Positions 3,984 to 23,022 of a DNA stretch of 25,326 nt are shown here, piece after piece (within the stretch, counting starts at the first letter, position 1; each line of letters opens with the position of its first letter). This DNA is from Candidatus Woesearchaeota archaeon (GTDB taxonomy: Archaea; Nanobdellota; Nanobdellia; SCGC-AAA011-G17; GW2011-AR17). The position numbers and the translations under genes were made by a program. The notes beneath the pieces were generated by a model. The model was given only the letters and a program-made list of their open reading frames with translations. It had not been told where the DNA came from and made no database searches. Location: contig CAZFZD010000002.1 in NCBI GenBank assembly GCA_964522895.1, positions 1 to 25,326 on the forward strand. Direction: 5' to 3'.

Positions 3984-4571
3984 ATGGAAGATGTTAAAAA
4001 CCGTATAGAAGCAATTCTCTTTACTACAGGAAGATTCATGGATATTGAGGAAATCGGAAAACTGACAAACATAGCTTCTGTCGGGATTGTGAAAGATGCG
4101 ATGGAATCGCTTGTGCACGAATATAATGAAAGAGAGGGTTCGCTTGAAATCTCTCAGGAAAATAACAAGTACAAGCTGGCAATAAGAAAAGATTACGTCT
4201 ATTTAACTTCAAAGTTGCTCAATGACAGTGAACTTGACAGGCCCACCCAGGAGACCTTGGCAGTAATAGCTTACAAGCAGCCAGTATTACAGGCTGAAGT
4301 CGTAAAAATAAGAGGCAATAATTCATACGACCATATAAAATCCCTTAAGGAGAACGGATTCATTACTTCAGAGAAACACGGAAGGACCAGGTTGCTAAAA
4401 TTAACTTCAAAATTCTATGACTACTTTGATACAGCTGGCGAAAATATCAAAGCCCTGAAAAGCGCATTTTCTAAAGTTGAAGAGAAAGTCGGGGTAGATG
4501 AAATCCGCGAGATAGAAAAACAGGTTGAAGAGGAGATGGAATCAAAAGAAGAAAAGGAGAACAAGGAGTGA
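3984..4571 (+). CDS. scpB: segregation and condensation protein B (ScpB)
   Basis: IEAILFTTGRFMDIEEI, then ETLAVIAYKQPVLQAEVVKIRGNNSYDHIKSLKENGFI and GRTRLLKLTSKFYDYF reproduce the ScpB double winged-helix signature (LETLAIIAYkQPITraEIeeIRGV...GRP..Y.TT.FL). Confidence 0.82.
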   Translation: MEDVKNRIEAILFTTGRFMDIEEIGKLTNIASVGIVKDAMESLVHEYNEREGSLEISQENNKYKLAIRKDYVYLTSKLLNDSELDRPTQETLAVIAYKQPVLQAEVVKIRGNNSYDHIKSLKENGFITSEKHGRTRLLKLTSKFYDYFDTAGENIKALKSAFSKVEEKVGVDEIREIEKQVEEEMESKEEKENKE

Positions 4572-4575
4572 TATC

Positions 4576-7426: not shown

Positions 7427-7428
7427 AA

Positions 7429-8694
7429 ATGCAAATTACAATAACCAGCATAGCAATATGGATTGTTTATGTATTATCATTATTCTTTCTCACATTCTGG
7501 CTTTTGACATTTCTTGAAAAAGGCTTGAAAGATAAGAAACAGAAACTGGATTCTTTTCCAAAAGTTACTGTGAGTGTTCCTGCATACAATGAAGAAGAGG
7601 GCCTGGCAGAAACTGTGAATTCAATATTGGCTCTTGATTATCCCAGGGATAAAGTGGAAATTATCATTGTCAATGACTGTTCCAAGGATAATACGAGAAA
7701 AGTTGCTGAACAGTTGAAAAAAGATAATGCTAACAGAGACATAAAGATAATCAACCATAAAACTAATCTTGGAAAAGGCAGGGGCATGAATAATGCGCTT
7801 AAGCTTGCAAATGGAGAATTCTTCGTGTGCCTTGATGCTGATTCTGTAATCCAGCCTAATGCATTGAAAAAGATGGTTCCTGTGTTCAAGGACAAAAAGG
7901 TTTCAACAGTGCTCCCATTGATGAAAGTGAAGAACCCCAAGGGCATGTTAGGAAAACTGCAATGGTGCGAATATCTCATAAACTTGTTTTATAAAGGAAT
8001 AATGGGCAAGGTAGACTGCATACATGTGTCGCCCGGACCTTTCAGCATATACAGAAAAGAAGCATTAGATAAGGTCGGAGGATTTGATGAGAATAATCTT
8101 ACTGAAGACTTAGAGATCACATTAAGAATGCAGAAAGCCAATTACAAGATTGTACAACTGCTTAATACTGTCGTTTACACTAGAGTTCCCCTTACCTGGA
8201 AAGGTTTTTATAAGCAAAGAAACAGATGGTATAAAGGCACAATGATTAACATGTTCGGATACAAGGACCTTTTACTAAATAAGAAATACGGTGATTTCGG
8301 CATCATACAAATGCCAAAAATCCTATTATCAGGATTCATAGCGGTCTTTGTGTTTTTTCTCATATTGTATCATCTCATAAGACCGCTTTTCATGTGGATC
8401 TATAATTCAACTTTTGTAAATTTCAATCTTGATGTGATGATTGCAAATTTTTACAATACTATAACTAATTTCAATCTTTTAGACCTCAATTACACCAACA
8501 TAATCTTCGGCGCAACAAGCATCATACTGGCCTTAATAATATTAAAACTGGCATTCAAATATACGCAAGAGCGGTACTCAAATCAAGGGTGGCTTTCTGT
8601 GCCGGCTTATTTGATACTTTACGGAATAATTGCTTCAGGCATCTGGCTGGGAGTTTTTATTGACTTAATATTCAGGAGGATACAAAAATGGTAA
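7429..8694 (+). CDS. family 2 glycosyltransferase, processive synthase type (PgaC/NodC/chitin- or cellulose-synthase-like), membrane-integrated
   Basis: N-terminal TM, then VSVPAYNEEE...IIVNDCSKDNT, DAD (VCLDADSV), TED (NLTEDLEITLRMQ) and QxxRW (YKQRNRWYKG), followed by several C-terminal TM helices. Confidence 0.8.
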   Translation: MQITITSIAIWIVYVLSLFFLTFWLLTFLEKGLKDKKQKLDSFPKVTVSVPAYNEEEGLAETVNSILALDYPRDKVEIIIVNDCSKDNTRKVAEQLKKDNANRDIKIINHKTNLGKGRGMNNALKLANGEFFVCLDADSVIQPNALKKMVPVFKDKKVSTVLPLMKVKNPKGMLGKLQWCEYLINLFYKGIMGKVDCIHVSPGPFSIYRKEALDKVGGFDENNLTEDLEITLRMQKANYKIVQLLNTVVYTRVPLTWKGFYKQRNRWYKGTMINMFGYKDLLLNKKYGDFGIIQMPKILLSGFIAVFVFFLILYHLIRPLFMWIYNSTFVNFNLDVMIANFYNTITNFNLLDLNYTNIIFGATSIILALIILKLAFKYTQERYSNQGWLSVPAYLILYGIIASGIWLGVFIDLIFRRIQKW

Positions 8695-9374
8695 GAAGTG
8701 CAAGCAAAAAAAACATGCTTATAGCTGCTGTGATAACATTCAGCATATTTATAATCGGACTTTTAGTGGGAGTCTCAATGAGCGCGGAACGGGCAGAATA
8801 CAGCAATGAACAGATGATAGAGCATAAGATGGAACTGGATAGCCTACAACTGCAGTATGCGTTTATCAATGAGGTTGAGATGGAAAACCACTGTGCGGCA
8901 CTTTCAACTGCTATTGAAGAAAACGTGAAAAAGCTCGGGATTCTTGGGAGCAAAATCCAAAAATATTCAAGCGACATGAACTTTGATGAAGAAGAATATA
9001 ACAGGCTTAAAAGAGAGTATGTGCTTTCAGAGATGAGGTTCTGGCTGTTCTCAAAAAAGGCACAAGAACTTTGCAAAGAAGACACAGCAAGAATAATCTA
9101 TTTCTATTCCAATGAAGAAGAATGTTTCAATTGCGATGCTCAAGCAAAAGTGCTCACTTACTTGAAAGAGCAATTGCAGGATAAACTGCTCATCTTCTCA
9201 ATTGACACTGCATTCAGGCAAGAGCCGCTGGTAGAAATGCTGCAAGAGACCCATAACATCACAGAGTATCCTTCAATACTTATCAACAACAAGCTTTATT
9301 CAGGGTTGCTTGACGAAGATGAATTAAGTCAGAGATTATGCGATATCTATAAAGAAAAACCTGCTATCTGTTAA
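8688..9374 (+). CDS. membrane-anchored thioredoxin-fold protein (CxxC)
   Basis: N-terminal TM (LIAAVITFSIFIIGLLVGV). The C-terminal region reads RIIYFYSNEEECFNCDAQAKVLTYLKEQL...LLIFSIDT...ITEYPSILINNKLYSG, which fits a beta-CxxC-alpha pattern with a cis-Pro-like YPS. The ATG overlaps the GT2 stop codon (ATGGTAA). Confidence 0.5.
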   Translation: MVRSASKKNMLIAAVITFSIFIIGLLVGVSMSAERAEYSNEQMIEHKMELDSLQLQYAFINEVEMENHCAALSTAIEENVKKLGILGSKIQKYSSDMNFDEEEYNRLKREYVLSEMRFWLFSKKAQELCKEDTARIIYFYSNEEECFNCDAQAKVLTYLKEQLQDKLLIFSIDTAFRQEPLVEMLQETHNITEYPSILINNKLYSGLLDEDELSQRLCDIYKEKPAIC

Positions 9375-10698
9375 ATACCCAATATTTGCATCCTGGCGTT
9401 TCAGCCCGGTAAGCGATATTGAATTCAGAGCTTAGCAGATTTATCAATTCCTGCTTCTTTTTTTCGCAGGCAGAGTCATCAGGCGGGCAAAGCATGCCGC
9501 CTTCGCAAGTGTCCAGGAATATGTAACTTATGTTTTCAGGGTTTTCCTGGATATAGTCTATCCAATGCTGCGCAAGTTCTGTGTCAAAGACCATATAATA
9601 CATTGGTATGACCTGCTTGGGAGAATATAAGTTTATTTTAGGGTGCATTGTCAAAATTTCGTGCTCAACTGATGAGACATTTTCAAGAAAAGAATGATAA
9701 TTGGCACTAGATTCGGATGGTTGATGGAGAGGCTGCAGGTTTGCAAAAAGGAATGCAATGCTAAGCACTAAAACTCCCCAGAAAATCCATGATTTCCTGA
9801 AAACTTTTTTCATGCCGATAGCTGCCAGAATTGCCATGTATGGCAGGAAGATTATTGCAAACCTTATCTCCTTGTGGACATGCTGACTGAAATACAGGAA
9901 GAACAATGAACCCAGCAACAAAACAAGCTTATGCTTCCTTTTGAACAGGATTACAAAGCCCAAGACTGCAAAGATGTAGAACGCATTCTGCTTTAGGAGT
10001 TCCACAATGTAAAAATACCATGGGCCTGAAAAGATCCATGTGCCTGCCCTCTTGACTATAGAGCTTGCCCAAAGCAAAGGGATTACAGGGTTTTTGTAAA
10101 GGAAATAATTCACGATAAAATACGGCAGTGTCACAAGCAGGAAGGTAGTTATCATCAAGGCCAGCTGCTTGTACTTTCTTATGAGCAATATGGAGAACAC
10201 AACAATCAATATGCCTTGCGGAAATTTTGTGAGAAATGCGATCCCTGAAAAAAGGCCTGCATGGATGTATCGCTTTTCCATAAAGAAGTATATTGCAAGG
10301 AGCGCGAAGAATACTGATGGAATCTCTGTGTAAAGCCTGAAAGTGAATGAGAAGAACACTGCTGAAAAGGCAAACAAGATTGCTGCAAACTTTCCAGAAC
10401 CTTTTTCAATCTTTTCAGATATTAAGTATAAGAAGTAGATGGAACCCAAGCTTAAGAGCATTGTGATTAGTTTTCCCACCCATATCATGCTATAGCCCAT
10501 TTTCCAGAAAACTCCTAATATCAGCGGCCAGACAAGAGGCCTTACTGGCTCCCAAAGGCCCATGTTGCCTAGTGAAAAAATATATTTAGCCATACCCAAG
10601 TAGACTGAAGCATCCCACCAGACAGCCTGCTGTTTAACCAAATAGATACACTGCAACACAAATGCTACAACCATTATAACAAATATTCTCAATCTCAT
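9364..10698 (-). CDS. GT-C fold glycosyltransferase, ArnT/PMT_2 (GT39/GT83)-like
   Basis: About 11 TM helices. The first-loop motif AVWWDASVYLGMAKYI resembles the DE/DA..Y...A motif of ArnT/PMT-like enzymes. There is a C-terminal soluble Cys-containing domain. The start overlaps the upstream gene's stop by 4 nt. Confidence 0.55.
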   Translation of the reverse strand: MRLRIFVIMVVAFVLQCIYLVKQQAVWWDASVYLGMAKYIFSLGNMGLWEPVRPLVWPLILGVFWKMGYSMIWVGKLITMLLSLGSIYFLYLISEKIEKGSGKFAAILFAFSAVFFSFTFRLYTEIPSVFFALLAIYFFMEKRYIHAGLFSGIAFLTKFPQGILIVVFSILLIRKYKQLALMITTFLLVTLPYFIVNYFLYKNPVIPLLWASSIVKRAGTWIFSGPWYFYIVELLKQNAFYIFAVLGFVILFKRKHKLVLLLGSLFFLYFSQHVHKEIRFAIIFLPYMAILAAIGMKKVFRKSWIFWGVLVLSIAFLFANLQPLHQPSESSANYHSFLENVSSVEHEILTMHPKINLYSPKQVIPMYYMVFDTELAQHWIDYIQENPENISYIFLDTCEGGMLCPPDDSACEKKKQELINLLSSEFNIAYRAETPGCKYWVFNR

Positions 10699-13078: not shown

Positions 13079-14233
13079 ATGAGATTCAAAGAAGTTTATC
13101 TGGACAATGGAGCCACTACCAAAATAGACCCTAAAGCGCTTGAAGCCATGAGGCCATATTTTGAAAAGTATTACGGCAATCCGTCTTCCATACACACTTT
13201 TGGAGAAAAGGCCGGCGAAGGGCTAGAGAAGGCGAGAAAGATAATCGCAAAATCAATCAATGCAAAACCTGAAGAGATATATTTCACTTCAGGAGGCACT
13301 GAATCGAACAATCTGGCCCTGAAAGGCATTGCATTCGCAAACAAGGATAAGAATCACATCATTACAACAAAAGTTGAGCACAAGTCTGTCATCAACACCT
13401 GCAAGTGGCTGGAGAAGCAGGGCTTTAAGGTTAGCTATCTGAGCGTGGACAAGGAAGGGTTTGTTGATCCTGAAGAGCTCAAATCTGCAATCACCCCAGA
13501 AACTTTGATGTTCAGCGTAATCCACGGCAACAACGAAATAGGTACAATAAATAATTTGGAAGCATTAGGCAAGCTGTGCAAAGAAGCAGGCATAGAGTTC
13601 CATACTGATGCTTGCCAAAGCTATACGAAAACTGAGATAGATGTTGAAAAGCAAAATCTCAGCATGGTCACGTTAAACTCGCATAAGATTCATGGGCCTA
13701 AAGGCGTTGGCGCATTATACATAAGAAAGGGACTAAAGCTTGAGCCTTGGCAGCACGGCGGCAACCATGAAAAAGGCATGAGATCTGGAACAGAAAACGT
13801 GCACGGCATTGTGGGGTTTGCAGAAGCTGTGAAGCTTGGCATGAACAAGAAGCACGTGAAAACGATGGCTGAACTCAGGGACAGGCTTATTGAAGGCGTA
13901 TTAAAGATTCCTGATACAAAGCTCAACGGGCCCAATGGGGAAAAAAGATTGTGCAACAATGCAAATTTCTCCTTTTTAGCAATCGAAGGCGAGGCAATTG
14001 GAGGCTACCTAAATCAGAAGATGGTGGCAAGCTCTACAGGCTCTGCTTGTTCTGCAAAGACGCTGCAGCCAAGCTATGTGCTAAAGGCGATTGGACTTAC
14101 AGATGAGGAAGCCAATGGCAGCCTGAGGCTTACATTGAGCAGGTTCACAACAGAAGAAGAAATTGATTATGTTGTAAAGGTCCTGCCCAAGATAGTAAGC
14201 AAGCTAAGAAGATTCTCGCCCTTGACAAGTTAG
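13079..14233 (+). CDS. iscS: cysteine desulfurase (NifS/IscS family, PLP-dependent)
   Basis: YLDNGATT, FTSGGTESNN, PLP-lysine block LNSHKIHGPKGVGALY, MRSGTENV and active-site SSTGSACS. Length is 384 aa. Confidence 0.9.
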   Translation: MRFKEVYLDNGATTKIDPKALEAMRPYFEKYYGNPSSIHTFGEKAGEGLEKARKIIAKSINAKPEEIYFTSGGTESNNLALKGIAFANKDKNHIITTKVEHKSVINTCKWLEKQGFKVSYLSVDKEGFVDPEELKSAITPETLMFSVIHGNNEIGTINNLEALGKLCKEAGIEFHTDACQSYTKTEIDVEKQNLSMVTLNSHKIHGPKGVGALYIRKGLKLEPWQHGGNHEKGMRSGTENVHGIVGFAEAVKLGMNKKHVKTMAELRDRLIEGVLKIPDTKLNGPNGEKRLCNNANFSFLAIEGEAIGGYLNQKMVASSTGSACSAKTLQPSYVLKAIGLTDEEANGSLRLTLSRFTTEEEIDYVVKVLPKIVSKLRRFSPLTS

Positions 14234-15063
14234 AATATTTTTTTCAATACTTTAATTCTTGCATCATAATCCAATGAGAACCTGAAGATATTCCAAAAAA
14301 CCTTTTGCAACCAAGCAATCCATTCCTCATCATAGACATCATAATAAATCCTTTTGCTCTTTTCCATCTCATAAGATTTAAAATTTTTCTCTTCTACCTT
14401 AAACTGTGCAAAGCTATCATCTATTATGGCTCCTCTTAAGGGCTGATAACAATGCCTTATTTCAATAAGGTTGGGATATTTTTTGATTAATGGCAAAAGT
14501 TGATTGATATTCCTTATGGAAGAAAAAGTTATTCTCGATAAGATTTTAAGAGAGACCTTCCTTTGGAGAAGTTCTTCCATAACAGATAAAACTTTTTTAC
14601 CATTCTCTTCAATATTAGTAAAGGATAAATTGCCTGAGAAAAAAAGGATTTGGTTTTTTGCCTTCTTCATATTTGAAATCAAATTTTGATTATGCGGCAA
14701 TTCATCTTCATGATAATCTTCCACAGAGGCCTTTTTCTTCTCTTCAGGAATAAACTGGTAAATCTCCATGAAATCAAAATCTTCTTTTCTCCTTCCCAAT
14801 TTGATTTGCTCATAAAAATTCTCTTTCAAATCATCAGTGTGCATCGATTCTGCATGATTGTAGAATACAATCTTCAAGGCTCCTTGAGTCCCTTTTCTGA
14901 AAGTCTTTATGTCTAAGCGGCCGGTTTGGCTTTTTATCTGCTTTACATAAGAGTCTGCCGTGAGCCAGCTTTTCTTTATGAGCTTAGAAATTTCCTGTAC
15001 TGTCTTAGGCTCAGCTTTTACAAAATTGATTATTTTCTTGATATCCTGTTCTCTCAGCACCAT
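14230..15063 (-). CDS. hypothetical protein, possible winged-HTH regulator with a degenerate PLD-like C-terminal domain (TrmB-like architecture)
   Basis: The N-terminus KTVQEISKLIKKSWLTADSYVKQI...ALKIVFYN looks like a wHTH. The C-terminus ILFFSGNLS...IEIRHCYQPLRGAIIDD resembles degenerate HKD/PLD-like repeats. The gene is divergent from the radical SAM operon. The call is weak. Confidence 0.3.
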   Translation of the reverse strand: MVLREQDIKKIINFVKAEPKTVQEISKLIKKSWLTADSYVKQIKSQTGRLDIKTFRKGTQGALKIVFYNHAESMHTDDLKENFYEQIKLGRRKEDFDFMEIYQFIPEEKKKASVEDYHEDELPHNQNLISNMKKAKNQILFFSGNLSFTNIEENGKKVLSVMEELLQRKVSLKILSRITFSSIRNINQLLPLIKKYPNLIEIRHCYQPLRGAIIDDSFAQFKVEEKNFKSYEMEKSKRIYYDVYDEEWIAWLQKVFWNIFRFSLDYDARIKVLKKIF

Positions 15064-15086
15064 TTTATATAAGGAAACATAAGGAG

Positions 15087-15094
15087 TTTAAATA
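15087..15094 (-). promoter_or_regulatory. TATA-box-like element for the 14230..15063 gene
   Basis: TTTAAATA lies 24 nt upstream of the ATG at 15063. Confidence 0.35.
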
Positions 15095-15171
15095 ATTTAT
15101 TAAACAATGTTATAAAAAAATTGAACTTAAGCTTATATCTAATTAAACACTATACTGTATTGGGTGATATC

Positions 15172-15462
15172 ATGATTAGAGGGATAGGCATTGACGGCGT
15201 CGTATCTGAAATAGGATGCTTGACAAAGAGTGATAGATTTATTGCTAAAAGGGAAGAATTGACAAAAAGCCTGATGCGCAGGTATAAGGCTGAAGACCTT
15301 GAAGCTGAAAGAGCCATAAATCATGCGATAGATTGTGGAGCCATATACCAAGAAGGCAGCAATATATGCCTAAGCATGGAAACAAACGAAAACTTGTTAG
15401 AAAAGATTTGCCCTTTCTGCGGTAAGGCCTTGAATTACAAGAAAGAAGATTATAACGAATAA
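15172..15462 (+). CDS. small (96 aa) Cys-containing protein, first gene of the radical SAM operon; function unknown
   Basis: I prefer ATG 15172 (MIRGIGIDGV...) over the TTG at 15121 because the SD-like GGTGAT at 15163..15168 precedes it. It has five Cys, including a C-terminal CPFC. Its stop is 3 nt before the radical SAM start. Confidence 0.45.
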   Translation: MIRGIGIDGVVSEIGCLTKSDRFIAKREELTKSLMRRYKAEDLEAERAINHAIDCGAIYQEGSNICLSMETNENLLEKICPFCGKALNYKKEDYNE

Positions 15463-15465
15463 AAA

Positions 15466-16737
15466 ATGATTTCAAACATAGTAAAGATAGAAAAAGAAAA
15501 GGACTGTTATGTGCTTTTCAACAAGAGAGGCATGGTGCTTGAACTAAGCCCTGAAGAATACAGCACCTTCAAGAAATACGGAAAGCAGAAAAATTTTCCT
15601 AAGAGGCATAGGGAATTTTTCAACAAACTGTGCAATTATGAAATGACTGACTTCCAGGATTATCAAGCTAAAGATGCAAAGAAAGACTATTCAAAAAGGC
15701 TGCTCCATCATGATTCTGCTGATCCAGTTTTTAAGGCTCCAATCATAGCACACTTGGGCATAACGCAAAGATGCAACATGCGCTGCAGATACTGTTCTGT
15801 CAGGGAACCTTACGAGAGTATGAAGGAACTTTCAACAGAGGAATGGAAAAAAATAATCAAAAATATTGCCGAGCTTGGAGTTTTTCAGATAGGCTTCACA
15901 GGAGGAGAACCAACATTAAGAGAGGATTTGATTGAACTTGCAGAATATGTCAACAGCTTAAACTGTACTTTTAATCTGACAACGAACTGCTGGCACCTCA
16001 GTGAAGAAATGATTGCCAAGCTAAAGAAAGCAGGCATGAGGCAATGCCAGGTATCATTAGACAGCCATTTGCCTGAAGTTAACGACAAACTCAGAACCGA
16101 AGGCAGTTGCAAAAAGGTGCAAAAAGCCATAAGGCTGCTTAGGAAACATAATATAACTGTGGGCATAGACTGCGTTGTTTCAAACAATAACATAAGGCAT
16201 ATAGAAAGCTTTGTGGAATGGCTGGGAAAAGAAAATGTGCCCTTTCTTACACTGATAAAAATCAAGCAGGGAGATTTGGCTCTAAGCTTATTCAAGGAAC
16301 TGCTGCCTCCTTATGAAAAATACAGCAGGCTTATTGAAAAGCTTTGCAGCAGGGAAAATAAAAATCCAAACATAACAATAGACTGCGGTTCAGTGAGCAA
16401 CCTGCAATATTCATTGAAAGAGGAAGATTTGCATAAGATACCTGTTGCAGGCTGTCCAGCAGGGCATACATTATTGTCCATCTCTCCAAACGGAGACATG
16501 TATCCGTGCGTGGCCCTAGGGCAGGATGAATTCAAGATAGGCAATGCGCTGAAAGATGATCTGAAAAAGCTGTGGCAAAAAAGCAAAGTCCTTAGAGAAC
16601 TTAGGCAGGTTAAATCAAAAGTAAGCGGAAAATGCAGGGATTGCGACAGGCTGGACTACTGCAGGGGCGGATGCAGAGGGATAGCATACTCGCTTTACCA
16701 TAATCTGTGGGAAGCAGATAAAACATGTAGGAGGTGA
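15466..16737 (+). CDS. radical SAM enzyme with a C-terminal SPASM domain and a ~95-aa N-terminal extension (possible RiPP recognition element)
   Basis: CX3CX2C at C103/C107/C110 (GITQRCNMRCRYCSV) and GGEPTL. The SPASM signature is CPAGHTLLSISPNGDMYPC (Cx12Gx4C) plus CRDCDRLDYCRGGC (Cx2Cx5Cx3C). The N-terminal CYVLFNKRGMVLELSPEEYSTFKKY resembles PqqD-like RRE strands and helix. Confidence 0.85.
   Translation: MISNIVKIEKEKDCYVLFNKRGMVLELSPEEYSTFKKYGKQKNFPKRHREFFNKLCNYEMTDFQDYQAKDAKKDYSKRLLHHDSADPVFKAPIIAHLGITQRCNMRCRYCSVREPYESMKELSTEEWKKIIKNIAELGVFQIGFTGGEPTLREDLIELAEYVNSLNCTFNLTTNCWHLSEEMIAKLKKAGMRQCQVSLDSHLPEVNDKLRTEGSCKKVQKAIRLLRKHNITVGIDCVVSNNNIRHIESFVEWLGKENVPFLTLIKIKQGDLALSLFKELLPPYEKYSRLIEKLCSRENKNPNITIDCGSVSNLQYSLKEEDLHKIPVAGCPAGHTLLSISPNGDMYPCVALGQDEFKIGNALKDDLKKLWQKSKVLRELRQVKSKVSGKCRDCDRLDYCRGGCRGIAYSLYHNLWEADKTCRR
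16729..16737 (+). promoter_or_regulatory. Shine-Dalgarno site for the 21-codon ORF
   Basis: AGGAGGTGA forms the last two codons plus the stop of the upstream radical SAM gene. It is followed by a 4-nt spacer and the ATG at 16742. It is complementary to the conserved archaeal/bacterial 16S 3' end (CCUCC core). Confidence 0.6.
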
Positions 16738-16741
16738 AACT

Positions 16742-16807
16742 ATGGAAATAAGAGCTGACGTCTTTATGAGCGGGCATTATGCTTATTTTTGCGAGCTGCC
16801 TTGCTAA
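16742..16807 (+). CDS. 21-aa candidate precursor peptide MEIRADVFMSGHYAYFCELPC
   Basis: Read by hand: ATG GAA ATA AGA GCT GAC GTC TTT ATG AGC GGG CAT TAT GCT TAT TTT TGC GAG CTG CCT TGC TAA. It is not in the ORF track because it is too short. It has a strong SD site, sits between two radical SAM/SPASM genes, and has an aromatic/Cys-rich C-terminal half. Confidence 0.5.
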   Translation: MEIRADVFMSGHYAYFCELPC

Positions 16808-16821
16808 ATATATGGATAAGC

Positions 16822-16849
16822 AGAATTAAAAAAATTCTTTTTTTATTTT
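16822..16849 (+). terminator. hairpin plus T-tract, possible attenuator or partial terminator after the peptide ORF
   Basis: AGAATT (16822..16827) pairs with AATTCT (16833..16838) across a 5-nt A loop. The following TTTTTTTATTTT tract resembles the oligo-T signals at which archaeal RNA polymerase terminates. Confidence 0.3.
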
Positions 16850-16865
16850 AACCAAGGGAGGAAAA

Positions 16866-17846
16866 ATGGAAAGGAGACTAGTTGAAGTGGCTTTCGAGGT
16901 CACCTACAAATGCAACCTGAGATGCAGACACTGCTATAACAGGAAAAATCTCAGCAATAAAGAAGAAATGGAAACAAGAGAGGTTTTCAAGGCATTAGAG
17001 ATAATAAGGAGATTCGGTGCAGAGAAAGTCAAGTTCGGGGGAGGAGAACCGCTAACAAGAAGAGACTTCTTTGAAATATTAAATCATGCAAATGGGCTAG
17101 GTTTTGAGACCAATTTTTCAAGCAATGGACTATTAATTCAAAAAAATCTACAGGAAATTGTGGCTGCAGGAATGAAAAGAGTGCAGATCAGCCTTGATAG
17201 TGTCGGCGAGAAACATGACACAGCAAGAAATTACAAGGGCCTGTTCAAGATAGTTGAAAATTCAGCAAGAATCCTCAAGGAAAAAGGCATAAAAGTTGAT
17301 TTCGCCACCACATTAACAAGAAACAATCATCGTGATTTTAATTTAATTCTTGATTTCTGCAAGAGAAACAATGCAAGAAGATGGCGGATAATGAAATACA
17401 TCCCTTATGGGATTGAAGATAAACTGATGCTCACTAAAAAGGAATATAAGGCAGCTATAGAAAGTATCCTGAAACTTAAAGGAGAGACAAAAGAACCAGA
17501 AATAATAGTCGCAAGGGAATTTGACCTGATAAGGGATAAAAAAGACTACAATGACATGCAGTGTTTCGGAGGCAAGAGCTTTTTCAGCCTGAAGGCAAAC
17601 GGAAATGTCACGCCCTGTTCCTACATAGACAACATAATATGTGGCAACATTCTCAGAGACAGAATTGAGGATATCTGGAATAACATAAGGATGGTTGAAT
17701 TCAGCAGGGACCACCATGATACAGGATGCGAATTTGCAGAAAAATGCAAGGGCGGTTGCAAGGCAGTATCCCTTCGCCTTGGAAAGAAAGTTCATTGTGA
17801 TCCTTACTGCTGGACAAAAATGTCTAGAAATTCTACAAGAGCTTAA
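16866..17846 (+). CDS. radical SAM enzyme with a SPASM/twitch-type C-terminal domain and no N-terminal extension
   Basis: SD GGGAGG at 16856..16861. CX3CX2C at C16/C20/C23 (TYKCNLRCRHCYN) and GGGEPLT. C-terminal CFGGKSFFSLKANGNVTPC (Cx12Gx4C), then DTGCEFAEKCKGGC (the first Cys of Cx2Cx5Cx3C is replaced by Asp), then CDPYC. Confidence 0.85.
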   Translation: MERRLVEVAFEVTYKCNLRCRHCYNRKNLSNKEEMETREVFKALEIIRRFGAEKVKFGGGEPLTRRDFFEILNHANGLGFETNFSSNGLLIQKNLQEIVAAGMKRVQISLDSVGEKHDTARNYKGLFKIVENSARILKEKGIKVDFATTLTRNNHRDFNLILDFCKRNNARRWRIMKYIPYGIEDKLMLTKKEYKAAIESILKLKGETKEPEIIVAREFDLIRDKKDYNDMQCFGGKSFFSLKANGNVTPCSYIDNIICGNILRDRIEDIWNNIRMVEFSRDHHDTGCEFAEKCKGGCKAVSLRLGKKVHCDPYCWTKMSRNSTRA

Positions 17847-17913
17847 GGAAAGATTTATAAACAAACATCTTTTCCTTGTAATAACAAATTTTTGTTTTAT
17901 TGGAGGAAACACA

Positions 17914-18141
17914 ATGGAAAGTACAGACAGGCCATTAGACGCATTAAACAATGCACGAAACCAAAGAGTCATAGTAGAACTGAAAAACAAGGCACAAGTT
18001 ACCGGCAAGCTGAAAGCATTCGACATACATATCAATGTTGTTCTGGAAGAAGCTGAAGAGCTTGAAAACGGCGAATTGAAAAGAAAATTAGGAACCACAT
18101 TCATCCGTGGCGACATGATAGTAATCATATCACCTGCATAA
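17914..18141 (+). CDS. Sm-like (LSm/SmAP) archaeal protein
   Basis: Start at ATG 17914, preceded by GGAGG (17902..17906). RPLDALNNARNQRVIVELKNKAQVTGKLKAFDIHINVVLEEAEELENGE...KLGTTFIRGDMIVIISP gives the Sm1 and Sm2 motifs. The conserved archaeal Sm-L37e gene pair is present. Confidence 0.9.
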   Translation: MESTDRPLDALNNARNQRVIVELKNKAQVTGKLKAFDIHINVVLEEAEELENGELKRKLGTTFIRGDMIVIISPA

Positions 18142-18156
18142 AGGTTTTTTTAGAAA

Positions 18157-18342
18157 ATGACAAAAGGCGCAGCATCAATGGGTAAAAAATCCGGTAAGGA
18201 TATACATATCCGTTGCAGAAGATGTGGAAGAGCAAGTTATCACAAGATTGACGGAGTCTGTTCTTCTTGCGGTTACGGCAGAAGCAAAAAGATGCGCAAA
18301 TACAATTGGCAGAAACCGGAAAAAAGGCCCACCAAACGCTGA
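18157..18342 (+). CDS. rpl37e: 50S ribosomal protein L37e
   Basis: GKKSGKDIHIRCRRCGRASYHKIDGVCSSCGYGRSKKMRKYNW contains a C4 zinc ribbon typical of L37e. Length is 61 aa. Confidence 0.92.
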   Translation: MTKGAASMGKKSGKDIHIRCRRCGRASYHKIDGVCSSCGYGRSKKMRKYNWQKPEKRPTKR

Positions 18343-18354
18343 ATTCTTTAGACT

Positions 18355-18996
18355 ATGAAAGACCTTAGCATCTTGCTTAATAAATATTTTGACAGCAAAA
18401 AGCTTAATCCTGAAGAGCAAAGACTAATAGATGAATACAGGCTTGATTGCATTCTTGAGGCAAATTGTCCTGATTTTACGCACCCTTACACAGCCTATAG
18501 CTATAACCTGCCCATATATCTTAAGCTGGCACAGTCACATACTGATTTTGAAAGCATATTAAAGAAAGAGCTGAAAAACAGAAAACTTATCGAGCTGGGC
18601 CCGGGTGCAAATCCGCAGGCAGAATGGGCACTAAAATACGGCATAAAAGAATATGTCGGAGTAGAGCCTTTTAATTCTGAAATCTCAGCAAAGGCTCTTC
18701 CCAAAGATCAAAAGCTTAGCATAGAGCCATGCAAGGAAGCGCTGCATTATCTGCTTGGAGTTGAAGAATCAAGTTCAGTAGTGATAAGCATGGGCATGAT
18801 GTGCGAAGAGGTTTATCATTTCAGCAACAAGGACTATTATAAGTTCCTAATTAAAGAGATTGCAAGGGTAACTCCAAAAGGTGCGCCAACAATCCACATA
18901 AATGGACCCCATAACAGTTTTGCAGAATATTTCAGGCAATTCGGATTCAAGGCCCTGGAAGGCCTCTTGGGAGACGCAATTTTCATAAAACAATAA
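18355..18996 (+). CDS. hypothetical protein, possibly a class I SAM-dependent methyltransferase fold
   Basis: Motif-I-like LIELGPGANP, an acidic residue after the next strand (YVGVEPF), and VVISMGMM. The assignment is weak. Confidence 0.3.
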   Translation: MKDLSILLNKYFDSKKLNPEEQRLIDEYRLDCILEANCPDFTHPYTAYSYNLPIYLKLAQSHTDFESILKKELKNRKLIELGPGANPQAEWALKYGIKEYVGVEPFNSEISAKALPKDQKLSIEPCKEALHYLLGVEESSSVVISMGMMCEEVYHFSNKDYYKFLIKEIARVTPKGAPTIHINGPHNSFAEYFRQFGFKALEGLLGDAIFIKQ

Positions 18997-18998
18997 CA

Positions 18999-19006
18999 TT
19001 TTTATA
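18999..19006 (+). promoter_or_regulatory. TATA box for tRNA-Leu
   Basis: TTTTTATA ends 27 nt before tRNA position 1, which is the classic archaeal TATA-to-TSS spacing. Confidence 0.5.
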
Positions 19007-19032
19007 GCCAATGTTACTTACTTTTTGCTTAT

Positions 19033-19116
19033 GCAGGGGTGCCGGAGCGGTCAAACGGGATGGGCTTAGGACCCATTGGCTTAGTGCCTTCGCAGGTTCG
19101 AATCCTGTCTCCTGCA
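19033..19116 (+). tRNA. tRNA-Leu (anticodon UAG), 84 nt, long variable arm, no encoded CCA
   Basis: Hand-folded. The acceptor GCAGGGG pairs with CTCCTGC and the discriminator is A. The anticodon stem ATGGG pairs with CCCAT around the loop C-T-TAG-G-A (U33, G37). The variable arm is GGC-TTAG-TGCC. The T arm is GCAGG-TTCGAAT-CCTGT. Confidence 0.9.
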
Positions 19117-19121
19117 TTTTT
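19117..19121 (+). terminator. oligo-T termination signal after tRNA-Leu
   Basis: TTTTT follows the discriminator base immediately. Confidence 0.35.
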
Positions 19122-19174
19122 CTAAAATAGCCTTGCACAATAACTACCTGCCGTAAGTATTCTAAAACGAAAAG

Positions 19175-19182
19175 TTTATAAA
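19175..19182 (+). promoter_or_regulatory. TATA-box-like element for the beta-barrel-like gene
   Basis: TTTATAAA ends 27 nt before the ATG at 19209. Confidence 0.4.
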
Positions 19183-19208
19183 TATGGGTATTACTAATTA
19201 GTAGTAAA

Positions 19209-20048
19209 ATGTTAAATAAAATTATCAAAAAAGCCAAGAAAATTGTCCCAGCATTAGCACTTGCAGGAATGGCTTATATGCCAGCAAATGCAAAAGCTGA
19301 CTGGGGAGATAAGGTAACTAATCCAAAATCCGAAATTGTAGTTACTCTTGGCCAAAAAAATGAAGAGCTTATGGGAAGACCTTTCTCAAAAGGCCCAAAG
19401 ATTGAGATGCACGGAAAGGGAAGGCTAAAGTTCAATGAGGTTTCTGGCTTGAAGCTTGAAGGAAGGCTTAATCTTGAAAACCTTGCTTATGAGAATTTTG
19501 ATGGAAGGAACCAAAGAACAGAGCTTGAAACAAATGGCATCTTTGAAGTTTATTTCAACAATTCGCCTAACTTAACATTCAAATCAGGTTTTGGTGTTGA
19601 TCTTGATTTTAACCATACAATAGAAAGGATTGAAAACACAAAAGTAAAATCAAGCAATATAACTGTAGGGCCAGCATTGACAGGCAACATGGATTCAAAG
19701 TATGTTGATTTTGATGTTCTAGTAAGCGCGGGTTTCGGAGAAGCAGGAAACGGCGTCCGCGGAAGAGGGCTTGCGATAAAGCCTAAGCTGCAAAGCGAAT
19801 TGGATATTGACTTAAGGCCTGTAAATGTGCCGCTTAACCTAGAAGGCATAGGAGAGATTGAAGTTACTGTTTTGGAAACAGAAAATACTTCAAGAAACGA
19901 ATATAATCTTAAGGCTGGCGCAAGATTGAATTATGAGGTATATGACAACACTTCAATAACTCTTGATTACAGCCATACATGGCATTACGGGAATCAGGAC
20001 AATGTCAGCTCAGATAATTTATCTGCTGGTTTAAAATACGAATTTTAA
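19209..20048 (+). CDS. secreted protein with outer-membrane beta-barrel (OMP/porin)-like features
   Basis: Signal peptide MLNKIIKKAKKIVPALALAGMAYMPANAKA|D. It has many amphipathic alternating strands (LKLEGRLNLENLAY, GIFEVYFNN, LTFKSGFGVDLDF, YVDFDVLVSAGFG, YNLKAGARLNYEVY, SITLDYSHTWHYG). The C-terminus is SAGLKYEF with a terminal Phe. Confidence 0.5.
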   Translation: MLNKIIKKAKKIVPALALAGMAYMPANAKADWGDKVTNPKSEIVVTLGQKNEELMGRPFSKGPKIEMHGKGRLKFNEVSGLKLEGRLNLENLAYENFDGRNQRTELETNGIFEVYFNNSPNLTFKSGFGVDLDFNHTIERIENTKVKSSNITVGPALTGNMDSKYVDFDVLVSAGFGEAGNGVRGRGLAIKPKLQSELDIDLRPVNVPLNLEGIGEIEVTVLETENTSRNEYNLKAGARLNYEVYDNTSITLDYSHTWHYGNQDNVSSDNLSAGLKYEF

Positions 20049-20075
20049 CACTTTTAAATGATAAATATAGAAAGA

Positions 20076-20083
20076 TTTATAAA
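20076..20083 (+). promoter_or_regulatory. TATA-box-like element for the surface protein gene
   Basis: TTTATAAA ends 24 nt before the ATG at 20107. Confidence 0.4.
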
Positions 20084-20106
20084 GCAAATCTTGTTCGATT
20101 CTAACC

Positions 20107-21291
20107 ATGAAAAAGCTAATGTTGATGTTACTGGGATTAATAGTACTTTTTTCCGCATGTGTTAGTGCGGCAGACTATCAGATTGAAAAGCTTGCCATAA
20201 ACGGGCTTATCATTGAAGATGAAACAGTGGCATTAGACCTGGGCACTAGAGTGCAAGTGGATGTCTGGGTAAAAGGTTTTGATGAGCAGGATGTAAAAGT
20301 GAAGGCATGGATTGCAGGCTATGAATATGATGATGTGCAGGATGTGTCCGAAACTTTCCAGGTTTCTGAAGATACTATGTACAGAAAAGAATTGTACTTG
20401 GAAATTCCAAGAGATTTAAGGCTTGATGACAAGGATTACAAGCTTTACATTGAAGTGTATGATAATGAAGATTATGTCGAGAAAAGCTATGACATCTATA
20501 TACAGGAAAACATCCATGATGTGGTAGTGCAGGACGTAATCATAAGGCCCAACACTATTGTTGATGCAGGAAACACATTAGCAGTCAAGGTTAGGCTTGA
20601 AAATTATGGAAAAAGGAAAGAGCAGGATGTCAAGGTGAAGGTTTCAATGCCGCAGCTTGGCACTACTTCAGTAACATGGGTTGACCTGCTTGATTCAATT
20701 GACAGTGATGATAATTCTGAGAGCACAAGCTTCATTCCCTTGAACATTCCGGAAGATGCTCCTACAGGAGATTTCCAGCTTAAAGTTGAAGCATACTACA
20801 GCAATCTTCACGAGACTGCTGAAACTGGCAGAATGATAAGAGTTAAAGGCATTGATGATGTGGCTGAAAAGCAACAAGGCAGCATTGTTTCCATAAACTC
20901 TAAAAAGGAACTTGAGCTTGAAAAGGAAACCGAGTATAAAGTGGGCATAATGAACCTTGAAGATGAAAGTAAAAAGTATGAGCTTGTTGTAAGCGGATTG
21001 AGTTCATGGGCAGAGTATGAAGTTCATCCTGAAAACCTTATGCTTTCAAGCAAAGAAGGTTCAGAGTTTACCATAGCGATATTGCCTGTTGAAGAAGGAA
21101 GCCACAGGTTCAGCATCAAGGTTCTTGAAGGCGGTGTTCTTATTAAGGAAGCACTTTATGATCTCAATCTTGAAGATGATAGCGGATTGTTTGACAGCAA
21201 TAGGAACCTAGTGCTTGGAATAATGATTGTTGTCTTGGTAATCGCATTGATTGCAACTATCGCGCAGGCAATGAGGCCCGACAACAGTTAA
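20107..21291 (+). CDS. cell-surface protein with beta-sandwich (CARDB/NEW3-like) repeats and a C-terminal TM anchor
   Basis: Signal peptide MKKLMLMLLGLIVLFSACVSA. It has two to three roughly 110-aa beta-rich modules (for example VVVQDVIIRPNTIVDAGNTLAVKVRLENYGKRKEQDVKVKVSMP). The C-terminus is LVLGIMIVVLVIALIATIAQA followed by a short tail, as in archaeal S-layer-type anchors. Confidence 0.55.
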   Translation: MKKLMLMLLGLIVLFSACVSAADYQIEKLAINGLIIEDETVALDLGTRVQVDVWVKGFDEQDVKVKAWIAGYEYDDVQDVSETFQVSEDTMYRKELYLEIPRDLRLDDKDYKLYIEVYDNEDYVEKSYDIYIQENIHDVVVQDVIIRPNTIVDAGNTLAVKVRLENYGKRKEQDVKVKVSMPQLGTTSVTWVDLLDSIDSDDNSESTSFIPLNIPEDAPTGDFQLKVEAYYSNLHETAETGRMIRVKGIDDVAEKQQGSIVSINSKKELELEKETEYKVGIMNLEDESKKYELVVSGLSSWAEYEVHPENLMLSSKEGSEFTIAILPVEEGSHRFSIKVLEGGVLIKEALYDLNLEDDSGLFDSNRNLVLGIMIVVLVIALIATIAQAMRPDNS

Positions 21292-22289
21292 GGTTTTTTT
21301 AATAGTTCTAAGAATTTTGGCAATGAGTCCCTGTAAAATGTGAAGCCGCCGGCTTTCTCATGCCCTCCGCCAACAAAACCTTCTATCTTATCATTGAATT
21401 CGCTTAAAAAAGATCCTGCGTCAAAATCCATTGTATCAGGGACACGCATACTGCCTATGACTTCCTCGTTATAGAGGTTCATGACCATAATGGGCTTGTT
21501 GTTTATGTGGCGCGCTGCAAGCACTCCCTGCACATTGTACTTGTCTTCTATTATCATGTAGTCAAGCTCGCCATTGGATTCAATCTCCACTTCCTGGCTA
21601 TAGCTGTCCCTTAAAATTCTCTTGAAGTTCTGCAGTTCCATGGCCAAAGGATGCATGTTGTTGACAAAAGGCTTGTAGCATTCTATGCTCTTCAACAGTT
21701 CCAGCGGTATGTCTCCGCACCAGTGCAGCCTTTTTCCCGTGTTAAGGGCAGACACATACTTTTCTATTTCAAGGTAATGGCCGTCAGAAAAGAAGCTTTT
21801 CCTCTTTTGCATCATTTCAGGCATAATCTGGTTTGCTGTTATGTGCAGTTCTGGAGGTATGTCTTCCCTGTCGCCTCCATCTCCAAAATAACCCATCAAT
21901 ACTAGAAAAATTAAATAGGGATCAGTTGTACCCTTAAGAAAATTCTCATAAATCAATAATGTGTTGGATTGTTTTTCAGGATCATGGACTGTAAGGTGGA
22001 ACTTGTCAGCATCTTCATTAGGATGGTGGTCAATGTATACTACTTCTACTGGTTTTTTTAGGATTTCTGTAGAAGCTGCAATGTCTGCACAGACAACCAC
22101 TTCAGTCTCTTCTTCTATGTCTTCAGTTTCAATAAGAAACGGCTTTCCTTTAGTCATGGTTTTTATGTTTTTAGCATAAGGCTTTATTATGTGGTACATC
22201 AATGCTGCGGAAGCTACACCGTCAGTGTCCCAGTGGCCGCAGACCTGTACTTTTTTTCCCTTGACCATAGAAATTAGTTCTTGTTTCAT
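21288..22289 (-). CDS. DHH/DHHA1 family phosphoesterase (NrnA/RecJ-like)
   Basis: Motif I HWDTDGVASAA, the DHH motif (VVYIDHHPNE), and DHHA1 GGGHEKAGGF near the C-terminus. Confidence 0.8.
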   Translation of the reverse strand: MKQELISMVKGKKVQVCGHWDTDGVASAALMYHIIKPYAKNIKTMTKGKPFLIETEDIEEETEVVVCADIAASTEILKKPVEVVYIDHHPNEDADKFHLTVHDPEKQSNTLLIYENFLKGTTDPYLIFLVLMGYFGDGGDREDIPPELHITANQIMPEMMQKRKSFFSDGHYLEIEKYVSALNTGKRLHWCGDIPLELLKSIECYKPFVNNMHPLAMELQNFKRILRDSYSQEVEIESNGELDYMIIEDKYNVQGVLAARHINNKPIMVMNLYNEEVIGSMRVPDTMDFDAGSFLSEFNDKIEGFVGGGHEKAGGFTFYRDSLPKFLELLKKP

Positions 22290-22324
22290 TCCAACAATTT
22301 AAAAAAAACCGATCATATATTAAG

Positions 22325-22960
22325 CTATCTGCTTTTTTTCACATTCCTTTTCTCACAGAGCTTTTCAATTATGCATTTGGAACAGAAAGGGCTTATTGGC
22401 TTGCAAGTGTTCTGGCCGTGCTTGACAAACAGCTCATTTATTTCTAGCCAATGCTTTTTCGATATAATCTTCATTAGTTGGAGTTCTGTCTCTTCAGGGC
22501 TTTTTGTCTTTACCAAGCCGAGCCTGTTTGATATTCTGTGGCAATGTGTGTCAATCGGCATGGCTGGCTTCTTGAACGCGTGAGTCAGTACAATCCCTGC
22601 TGTCTTCCTTCCGACGCCCTTAAACTTCAACAGCTCCTGCATAGTATCAGGAACTTGTCCAGAATATTCTTTTATGATCTTTTTGCTCGCTTCCCTTATC
22701 CTTTTTGCCTTGGTCTTGTAAAACCCTATAGGATATATGAGCTTCTCTATCTGCTTTGGAGTTAATCCTGCCATCTTCTTGGGCGTATCGGCTTTTTCAA
22801 AAAGCCTTGTTGCAGTGGGATAAGTGAGTTCGTCCTTTGTCCTGTGGGAAAGCATGCAGCTTATCAGCACGTAAAAAGGGTCGTCGTTTGCCTTGGCAAG
22901 AAAGAATGTATCATCGTATTGCTTTTTCAGCAGACTTATTATCTTGTTGACTTTTTTCAT
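22325..22960 (-). CDS. nth: endonuclease III (HhH-GPD DNA glycosylase with 4Fe-4S cluster)
   Basis: LISCMLSHRTKD, the HhH motif LLKFKGVGRKTAGIVL, IDTHCHRISNRLG, and the C-terminal CKPISPFCSKCIIEKLC (Cx6Cx2Cx5C). Confidence 0.9.
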   Translation of the reverse strand: MKKVNKIISLLKKQYDDTFFLAKANDDPFYVLISCMLSHRTKDELTYPTATRLFEKADTPKKMAGLTPKQIEKLIYPIGFYKTKAKRIREASKKIIKEYSGQVPDTMQELLKFKGVGRKTAGIVLTHAFKKPAMPIDTHCHRISNRLGLVKTKSPEETELQLMKIISKKHWLEINELFVKHGQNTCKPISPFCSKCIIEKLCEKRNVKKSR

Positions 22961-22981
22961 CCAATATTAGGTAGGGGAAAG

Positions 22982-22991
22982 TTTTATAAAA
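22982..22991. promoter_or_regulatory. palindromic TATA element between divergent genes
   Basis: TTTTATAAAA is a perfect palindrome. It lies 22 nt from the nth ATG (22960) and 32 nt from the ATG at 23023. Confidence 0.35.
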
Positions 22992-23022
22992 GACTTCTGT
23001 TACTGCCAGTTGCATTTCAAAT

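Follow-up and report, generated by a model that had tools for sequence, protein, structure and literature searches.

The stretch of DNA analysed here, hereafter the window, comprises 25,326 nucleotides of the contig CAZFZD010000002.1 (assembly GCA_964522895.1) from a Candidatus Woesearchaeota archaeon, a group placed by the NCBI taxonomy within the kingdom Nanobdellati. The subject is one gene within it (Table 1), the product of which is predicted to be an exported transmembrane β-barrel of the outer-membrane protein (OMP) class. This gene, called the barrel gene below, stands among genes for aRF1, ScpB, S8e, L37e, an Sm protein and a class-I aminoacyl-tRNA synthetase, along with NifS-like, DHH/DHHA1, Nth and RsmB-like genes; the markers exclusive to archaea and eukaryotes in the window or in the orthologous locus are aRF1, S8e, L37e, Sm, Nop10, eIF2-alpha, S27e and L44e. 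The gene for tRNA-Leu(TAG) located immediately upstream occupies the same position before the barrel orthologues of the related loci L003, L015 and L016. An initial annotation of the window, made from the sequence alone, had listed archaeal flanks (Sm, L37e and the tRNA on one side, DHH and Nth on the other), all of which are confirmed, except that the immediate downstream neighbour is not DHH but a gene for an S-layer-like surface protein.

The 40 nucleotides 5' of the start codon, cgAAAAGTTTATAAATA…TAGTAGTAAAATG, contain a B recognition element (BRE)/TATA element at archaeal spacing, and the block cgAAAAGyTTATAAATA…TAGTAGTAAAATG is near-identical upstream of the orthologues in L003, L016 and L008, the proteins being merely 37-49% identical. 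The TATA spacing shared with the neighbouring genes, pointed out in the initial annotation, is thus borne out and proves to be conserved in the orthologous loci as well. The GC content of the gene (38.1%) shows no compositional break from that of the window (38.9%). An independent Logan contig, SRR15425350 (9416 bp), corresponds to positions 13592..23007 with 99.93% identity and seven single-nucleotide polymorphisms (SNPs), and covers both junctions of the barrel gene; together with the conserved synteny, it agrees with the earlier opinion that chimerism is unlikely, no misassembly junction having appeared at either flank.

As for the synteny, the 50%-identical orthologue P0002, present in three NCBI metagenome-assembled genomes (MAGs), lies in the order Sm, L37e, tRNA-Leu, barrel, 395-aa protein, …, DHH, Nth, …, RsmB, with Nop10, eIF2-alpha, S27e and L44e further along the contig, and the same order is found on the metagenome contigs L015 and L016. 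Even the members that are just 26-27% identical—P0005 (GCA_043805025.1), P0006 (a Logan contig) and a 274-aa protein (GCA_028706745.1)—keep the order barrel, (551-554 aa protein), S-layer-like, …, DHH, …, RsmB, Nth belonging likewise to the conserved block in L010 and L019. In total, the gene order is shared with at least eight other assemblies from different samples over a barrel identity of 26-50%. The ratio of nonsynonymous to synonymous substitutions (dN/dS) of the barrel gene is 0.22-0.43, the least saturated pair, L003 and L016, giving dN 0.143, dS 0.433 and a ratio of 0.33; judging by these values, the gene is under purifying selection. Based on the GC content, the independent assembly, the synteny, the promoter and dN/dS, misassembly, bin contamination and recent transfer are effectively excluded, and the gene may effectively be regarded as genuine and native to a Woesearchaeota/Nanoarchaeota-type archaeon of the DPANN group.

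Concerning the protein itself, its N-terminus, MLNKIIKKAKKIVPALALAGMAYMPANAKA followed by DW, exhibits on inspection the lysine-rich n-region, the hydrophobic h-region and the A-K-A motif of a Sec-type signal peptide, and AlphaFold2 (AF2) places a helix at residues 2-21, albeit with a low predicted local distance difference test value (pLDDT); an equivalent signal peptide with an AxA-type site was recognized by inspection in every complete relative. The product is therefore probably exported by Sec, with the predicted cleavage between A30 and D31. Its composition is rich in Asn, Gly, Leu, Glu and Lys, and cysteine is absent.

The fold is indicated by the Pfam family PF13505 (OMP_b-brl), which matches residues 87-279 with 33.7 bits against a curated gathering cut-off of 28.7 (E=5.1e-8); the weaker secondary matches, DUF5777 and BBP2_2, are both membrane-β-barrel families. 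Five of nine family members match PF13505 at E<=1, and others show weak matches to BBP2_2. AF2 supplied with the family alignment A1 returned a confident model with a mean pLDDT of 83.6 and a predicted TM-score (pTM) of 0.75, the five models spanning 81.7-83.6, the single-sequence run having been uninformative (pLDDT 35). The model consists of 12 strands with short connections of 2-7 residues on both sides of the barrel, and strands 1 and 12, each 13 residues long, are mutually antiparallel. A Foldseek comparison with the PDB yielded 221 matches at E<=1e-3, and all 50 of the matches listed are bacterial outer-membrane barrels; among those listed, the 12-stranded autotransporter β-domains Hbp, EstA, NalP and BrkA come on top, followed by OpcA, OmpG, CymA and FadL and then by general porins. 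The fold search of BFVD retrieved exclusively phage-encoded OMP or autotransporter barrels. Searches of the PDB by sequence and profile with the barrel revealed nothing meaningful, only a chance match to a galectin (E=0.01).

Each of the 12 strands, when mapped on the sequence, has one apolar face and another rich in K, E, R, D and N. The apolar faces, exemplified by L-F-S-F-V-L-F on strand 5 and I-L-Y-H-W-Y on strand 11, form continuous runs of 4-7 alternate residues on 12/12 strands, and in the meander these runs are in register toward the end bearing both termini, the longer strands 4-6 projecting as polar hairpins at the opposite end. Such an arrangement in the model is that of bacterial OMPs. 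Judging by the fold matches, the barrel is probably closed and the apolar faces would point outward. Segments of nine residues that are apolar on one side and polar on the other number 5.0 per 100 aa in the barrel protein against 0-2.8 in the 19 other proteins of the window (2.0 in the β-rich S-layer-like neighbour), a density 2-5 times theirs, so that the alternating pattern is far above the local background.

The C-terminal strand fits the published β-signal descriptor zeta-x-G-x-x-[aromatic/hydrophobic]-x-[aromatic/hydrophobic] (PMC10945584) and agrees at five of seven positions with the 'prototypical' consensus LGLGYRF (PMC10629564). The terminal residue is aromatic in all 14 family members (F in 11, Y in two, W in one), and 11 of the 14 have glycine at position -6. 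It should be pointed out that the label 'BAM-type', derived from the β-barrel assembly machinery (BAM), describes here a sequence motif only. The main features put forward in the initial annotation—the reading frame with its exact coordinates and length, the signal peptide with the AxA site, the 10-14 amphipathic strands (12 in the model) and the C-terminus G-L-K-Y-E-F resembling a β-signal—have thus been recovered, and the β-sandwich or jelly-roll it had named as the competing outcome is absent from both the AF2 model and the fold matches. Assignment of the protein to the OMP class is supported by the profile score, the fold, the signal peptide and the terminal motif.

Bacterial OMPs have long and variable loops on the side opposite the termini. 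In the present family that side carries short and conserved connections. The most conserved motif, G-x-G-x-A-G-N-x-V-x-G, is located according to the AF2 strand map in the hairpin joining strands 7 and 8, with G177, G180 and N181 invariant in the alignment A1 and A179, V183 and G185 in the alignment A2. The G-N-Q-D-N hairpin served also as a search pattern that recovered barrel relatives, and a third conserved hairpin, L-M-G-R-x-F (residues 54-59), likewise lies opposite the termini. The short and conserved character of these connections suggests a functional mouth or a contact to a conserved partner.

The barrel family is small. When 1.84 billion cluster representatives were scanned exhaustively with phmmer (E<=1e-3), ten proteins came up, namely the cluster of the query itself, eight true relatives (P0002-P0009) and the 704-aa repeat protein P0010, which was discarded as spurious; no bacterial homologue was among them. 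A word-indexed homology search returned the query alone, or two proteins when the profile was used, and the profile scan of genome contigs was made with the four closest sequences. Every member with a source name is a 'hypothetical protein' of 'Nanoarchaeota archaeon' or 'Candidatus Woesearchaeota archaeon'. The family is present in the MAGs GCA_018896675.1, GCA_018895155.1, GCA_018898035.1, GCA_018221085.1, GCA_043805025.1, GCA_028706745.1 and GCA_964644775.1. Since the scan found no bacterial homologue at that threshold and synteny persists between lineages whose proteins have diverged to 26% identity, recent horizontal acquisition from a bacterium, one of the explanations offered in the initial annotation, is unlikely. 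Barrel relatives were not found on viral contigs, and a viral or mobile-element origin was therefore dropped.

Profile searches of the relatives' loci added two paralogues in L019 (GCA_028706745.1), 259 and 207 aa long and situated upstream of the 274-aa member. The three form one cluster (L019:5434-8254), all with a signal peptide and an aromatic C-terminus, and two small Cys-rich genes of 79 and 71 aa lie between the gene for the 259-aa and that for the 274-aa protein; an 83-aa Cys-rich protein encoded upstream of P0008 in L012 resembles by eye the 71-aa one. A distant 495-aa member, L020_495, was recognized with E=3.8e-8 against the extended profile and matches PF13505 with E=5e-4. Some members have additions between the signal peptide and the barrel: 40-60 charged residues in P0003 and P0006, about 260 residues rich in Pro, Lys and Ser in P0012, and about 270 residues including a Pro/Thr/Val/Glu linker in L020_495. 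A LysM-like stretch suspected by eye in the N-terminus of L020_495 was dropped, Pfam giving no support at E<=1.

The S-layer-like protein encoded directly downstream has a signal peptide, Ig/CARDB/NPCBM_assoc-like domains and a C-terminal transmembrane helix followed by an R-P tail. It scores 67.6 bits, under the cut-off of 110, with NCBIfam NF033506 ('PACE-CTERM putative S-layer protein') and matches the Pfam families NPCBM_assoc and FixG_C weakly. Its orthologues, 40-65% identical, adjoin the barrel gene or lie one gene away from it in L003, L010, L011, L015, L016 and L019, the linkage being seen on all contigs long enough to tell and thus in at least six lineages. The barrel is more diverged than this partner, dN/dS being 0.33 against 0.17 and protein identity 26-50% against 40-65%. 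The partner family covers at least 33 clusters, the named ones all coming from MAGs of Nanoarchaeota, Nanoarchaeia, Woesearchaeota or unclassified archaeon.

Table 1. Positions in the window and main characteristics of the barrel gene, its product and the adjacent features
Feature	Position	Strand	Description
tRNA-Leu gene, anticodon TAG	19032..19117	+	Found by ARAGORN; conserved upstream flank of the barrel gene
BRE/TATA-like element cgAAAAGTTTATAAATA	19168..19184	+	About 25-40 nt before the barrel ATG; putative promoter
Barrel open reading frame	19209..20048	+	ATG start, 279 aa; read from the sequence
Sec-type signal peptide	19209..19298	+	Residues 1-30, predicted cleavage after A-K-A; sequence inspection
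Mature chain	19299..20045	+	249 aa; 11-residue N-terminal tail, then 12 antiparallel strands (residues 42-278)
AF2 strands 1-6			Residues 42-54, 57-74, 79-94, 99-119, 122-141, 144-163
AF2 strands 7-12			Residues 166-181, 185-201, 209-223, 228-245, 248-261, 266-278
G-x-G-x-A-G-N-x-V-x-G motif	19731..19763	+	Residues 175-185; most conserved motif of the family
G-N-Q-D-N hairpin	19989..20003	+	Residues 261-265, between strands 11 and 12; invariant in alignment A2
Terminal strand with β-signal-like motif S-A-G-L-K-Y-E-F	20022..20045	+	Residues 272-279
BRE/TATA-like element GAAAGATTTATAAAG	20070..20084	+	Separate putative promoter of the S-layer-like gene; conserved in L003 and L016
S-layer-like surface protein gene	20107..21291	+	394 aa; linked partner, directly downstream of the barrel gene

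It is in our view somewhat more probable than not that the gene is native and vertically inherited, and that it encodes a Sec-exported, 12-strand transmembrane barrel of the OMP class residing outside the cytoplasmic membrane with an S-layer-like partner. The gene would be driven by its own conserved archaeal BRE/TATA promoter, and the product, directed to Sec by its signal peptide and cleaved between A30 and D31, would fold as a mature 249-aa chain into a 12-strand barrel with the apolar belt outward and the charged faces lining a water-filled lumen. It would reside in a lipid layer beyond the cytoplasmic membrane, belonging either to the outer envelope of the archaeon itself or to a host contact zone, its insertion being spontaneous or aided by some unknown factor other than Omp85, and the conserved terminal strand (hydrophobic-G-hydrophobic-x-aromatic-x-F) would serve both closure and insertion. 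There, the barrel could act as a small passive channel and/or a membrane anchor cooperating with the S-layer-like protein, and the far-side hairpins LMGRxF, GxAGNxVxG and GNQDN would form a functional or partner-binding mouth. The long Pro-rich linkers and the OmpM-like domain order of some relatives favour a barrel situated at some distance from the cell body, possibly in an outer layer of the archaeon itself or in the membrane of a host.

Several points weigh against this reading. A second membrane is not known in Woesearchaeota-type cells. The alignment A1 behind the AF2 model holds nine sequences only, and the TM-scores of the model to solved barrels are moderate, about 0.45-0.5 and at most 0.51. 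The partner has a C-terminal transmembrane anchor of its own, so no anchoring by the barrel is obviously needed, and its homologues in L021 and L022, about 32% identical and in a different neighbourhood, have no barrel gene within 10 kb; the pairing of the barrel with the S-layer-like protein is therefore a clade-specific module. Finally, a survey from 2014 detected no member of the Omp85 family (Omp85/TpsB) in archaea (PMC4104836), and insertion would consequently be spontaneous or mediated by an unknown factor; how much β-signal residues contribute energetically when barrels fold unassisted has been measured (PMC5519381). Among the called genes of the window and of the related loci (up to 10 kb on each side), no Pfam match to Omp85 or POTRA was found.

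DPANN archaea are predominantly ectosymbionts (see also PMC11329633), which bears on the first of the alternatives, namely that the barrel is secreted and inserts from outside into the membrane of a host—a bacterial outer membrane or an archaeal one—as a conduit for metabolites the symbiont cannot make, the N-terminal linker of the long variants tethering it back to the symbiont. Such a pore would account for a signal peptide in a monoderm archaeon with no obvious home membrane, the small 12-strand barrel with a charged lumen and without a plug domain in the model would suit it, and the far-side hairpins, being conserved rather than hypervariable, could contact a conserved host compartment. 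A precedent is the porin-like PopA of the predatory bacterium Bdellovibrio, whose superfamily may include a relative from Altiarchaeales (PMC12228718). The locus, however, is a conserved housekeeping neighbourhood with a constitutive-looking promoter of strong consensus beside an S-layer-like gene, not a locus of effectors or of a secretion system; genes for a delivery apparatus are absent from the vicinity, and although the barrel diverges more than its partner, it does so under purifying selection, host-driven diversification not being evident. Insertion into a host membrane is thus considered unlikely.

Rather improbable is a barrel outside any membrane, with its apolar surface buried in a homo-oligomer or on the S-layer-like protein (a lattice or 'sheath'), or binding a hydrophobic ligand such as a host lipid. 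DPANN archaea generally lack lipid synthesis, a second membrane is not known in the lineage, and the tight linkage to the S-layer-like gene would suit a lattice; a superfamily of lipid-trapping oligomeric OMP-like proteins does exist (PMC12228718). Nevertheless, the matches to the fold, among those listed, are all integral outer-membrane barrels, the apolar runs on 12/12 strands cover the full circumference, beyond the needs of an interface, and the putative lumen faces are too strongly charged for a hydrophobic ligand channel.

Less probable still is that the barrel inserts from outside into the cytoplasmic membrane of the archaeon itself and serves there, in a cell with minimal membrane bioenergetics, as a passive pore for uptake. 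That membrane is the only one known in these cells, and the signal peptide and the small barrel with a charged lumen would be compatible with such a site, but an open β-barrel in the sole ion-tight membrane would dissipate gradients, and the Pro-rich linkers of P0012 and L020_495 are better explained by spanning an inter-membrane or inter-cell space. As to a plain artefact, whether a gene of bacterial origin brought in by contig chimerism or bin contamination, or a bacterial transfer of very recent date and without function in the archaeon, the overwhelmingly bacterial nature of OMP_b-brl and the adjoining tRNA gene, a common integration site, might recall it, yet it is virtually discounted by the same junctions in an independent assembly with its 7 SNPs, the same order in at least eight other assemblies at 26-50% protein identity, the conserved archaeal BRE/TATA promoter, the GC content equal to that of the flanks, dN/dS <0.45, the zero bacterial proteins at E<=1e-3 among the 1.84 billion representatives and the absence of an adjacent integrase or other mobile-element gene.

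With respect to the known systems, the exported OMP-class barrel favoured here shares with the OMPs of PF13505 a score over the cut-off, a signal peptide, antiparallel amphipathic strands and the C-terminal hydrophobic-G-hydrophobic-x-aromatic-x-F, but differs from them in its DPANN host with an archaeal promoter and without a known outer membrane or BAM, in the match being confined to residues 87-279, in having no bacterial relative by phmmer and in its short, conserved far-side connections. The best structural matches are the β-domains of type Va autotransporters (Hbp 3aeh, EstA 3kvn, NalP 1uyn, BrkA 3qq2; Foldseek E ~1e-8, TM ~0.46), which likewise have 12 strands and short loops, and P0012 and L020_495 share with them a long N-terminal region before the C-terminal barrel. 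The identity is, however, 9-13%, and a pore-filling linker helix is not predicted, the AF2 model having after residue 21 just a 3-residue turn. A type Va autotransporter was rejected, 11 residues before strand 1 leaving no passenger and PF03797 being unmatched at E<=1. Rejected were also a general trimeric porin (16-18 strands and the L3 loop, against 12 strands and connections of <=7 residues), TM-scores to Omp32, PorB and OmpC-type porins being 0.35-0.40 by Foldseek, and a β-pore-forming toxin, the whole mature chain being one 12-strand meander with no toxin-family matches.

The characterized outer-membrane protein of Ignicoccus is α-helical and not an OMP-type barrel. Still, the diderm archaea reported, Ignicoccus, ARMAN and Altiarchaeum (PMC8871954), provide an archaeal precedent for a second membrane housing an exported protein. 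The OmpM/SlpA tethers of Negativicutes and Deinococcus (PMC10628300, PMC9388160) resemble P0012 and L020_495 in the domain order—an N-terminal envelope-spanning region and a C-terminal barrel—and in the link to S-layer biology, whereas they form larger, trimeric barrels and possess SLH domains and coiled coils, neither of which was detected in the barrel family, and the barrel of the window itself lacks the N-terminal region. The PopA superfamily (PMC12228718) offers a small OMP-like barrel of a cell living on other cells, and the PopA paper remarks on a possible distant archaeal (Altiarchaeales) relative; the PopA-type proteins, on the other hand, are small, oligomeric lipid-trapping chambers, no sequence or profile link to them was found, and the archaeal lineage is a different one. 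Apart from that remark, searches of the open-access literature yielded no report on OMP-type barrels or porins from Woesearchaeota or any other DPANN lineage. The fold and the class are known; it is the archaeal domain and the envelope context that have not been previously described for the OMP class.

A wider proposal, which is conceivable but doubtful, is that a clade of DPANN archaea of the Woesearchaeota/Nanoarchaeota type forms an outer layer of lipid, or a patch of membrane for host contact, in which bacterial-type barrels reside, these barrels being assembled without any Omp85. If true, it would represent the first archaeal OMP-type barrel proteome and a natural BAM-independent or new-insertase route for barrels retaining the classical β-signal. 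Barrels of the OMP class are a classical hallmark of outer membranes, be it in diderm bacteria, mitochondria or plastids, where their insertion always depends on the Omp85 family, and neither such proteins nor the inserting machinery are known from archaea. In any case, the family raises the questions whether some uncultivated DPANN archaea have a second membrane, how barrels are inserted where Omp85 is not known, and whether they are part of an interface for metabolite or lipid uptake by genome-reduced symbionts. The mature 249-aa barrel is a compact candidate for biochemistry.

A few further observations concern the surroundings of the barrel and its partner. The C-terminal tails of the partner (window 21230-21291) and its orthologues have the transmembrane helix followed by a small residue, R/K and P, as in …AQAMRPDNS, …AQGMKPEKH, …VAGTRPRY and …SYGLRPHHHHRL, and look like a PACE-CTERM or archaeosortase-type sorting signal. 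In three distant lineages (L010:1017-2672, L019:8258-9922 and L009:3-1628), the barrel gene is adjoined by one for a HExxH (zincin-like) protein of 541-554 aa, a protein missing from the window; a lipoprotein-like signal is present in two of the three and none matches Pfam, and the protein could be a processing or assembly factor of the module. Searches of the PDB with the partner and with the 551-aa HExxH protein found nothing. In L020, a 720-aa secreted protein with repeated PKD/Ig-like domains and a lipoprotein-like N-terminus is encoded between the barrel-like and S-layer-like genes (L020:6900-9062).

On the upstream side, the initial annotation had not included a 213-aa gene (18355..18996) between L37e and tRNA-Leu, which matches Methyltransf_23 weakly (E=0.14); an open reading frame of equal length occupies this position in L016, and L003 lacks one altogether. 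The Sm frame 17695..18141, which begins with TTG and comprises 148 aa, is too long: in the independent contig L001, the gene called corresponds to window 17914..18141 (75 aa), and the LSM domain covers residues 84-147 of the longer frame. Two radical-SAM/SPASM genes (15466..16737 and 16866..17846) follow consecutively a small open reading frame (15121..15462), at the matching position of which a 96-aa gene was called in L001; this is the layout of a peptide-maturase cluster similar to those for ribosomally synthesized and post-translationally modified peptides, and L003 retains a single radical-SAM gene. Farther away, a 497-aa protein (10695-12188, minus strand) without a match in Pfam or NCBIfam has a bacterial-style lipobox-like N-terminus, …FLLGC/SATEF. 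Next to it lies a glycosylation cluster (4525-10698) consisting of two overlapping genes for weakly paralogous multi-pass membrane proteins (4525..6039 and 5969..7426), the former with a weak archaeal STT3/AglB-like N-terminus, a GT2 glycosyltransferase gene (7429..8694) and a PMT_2/ArnT-like gene (9364..10698, minus strand), and the enzymes encoded there may glycosylate surface proteins.

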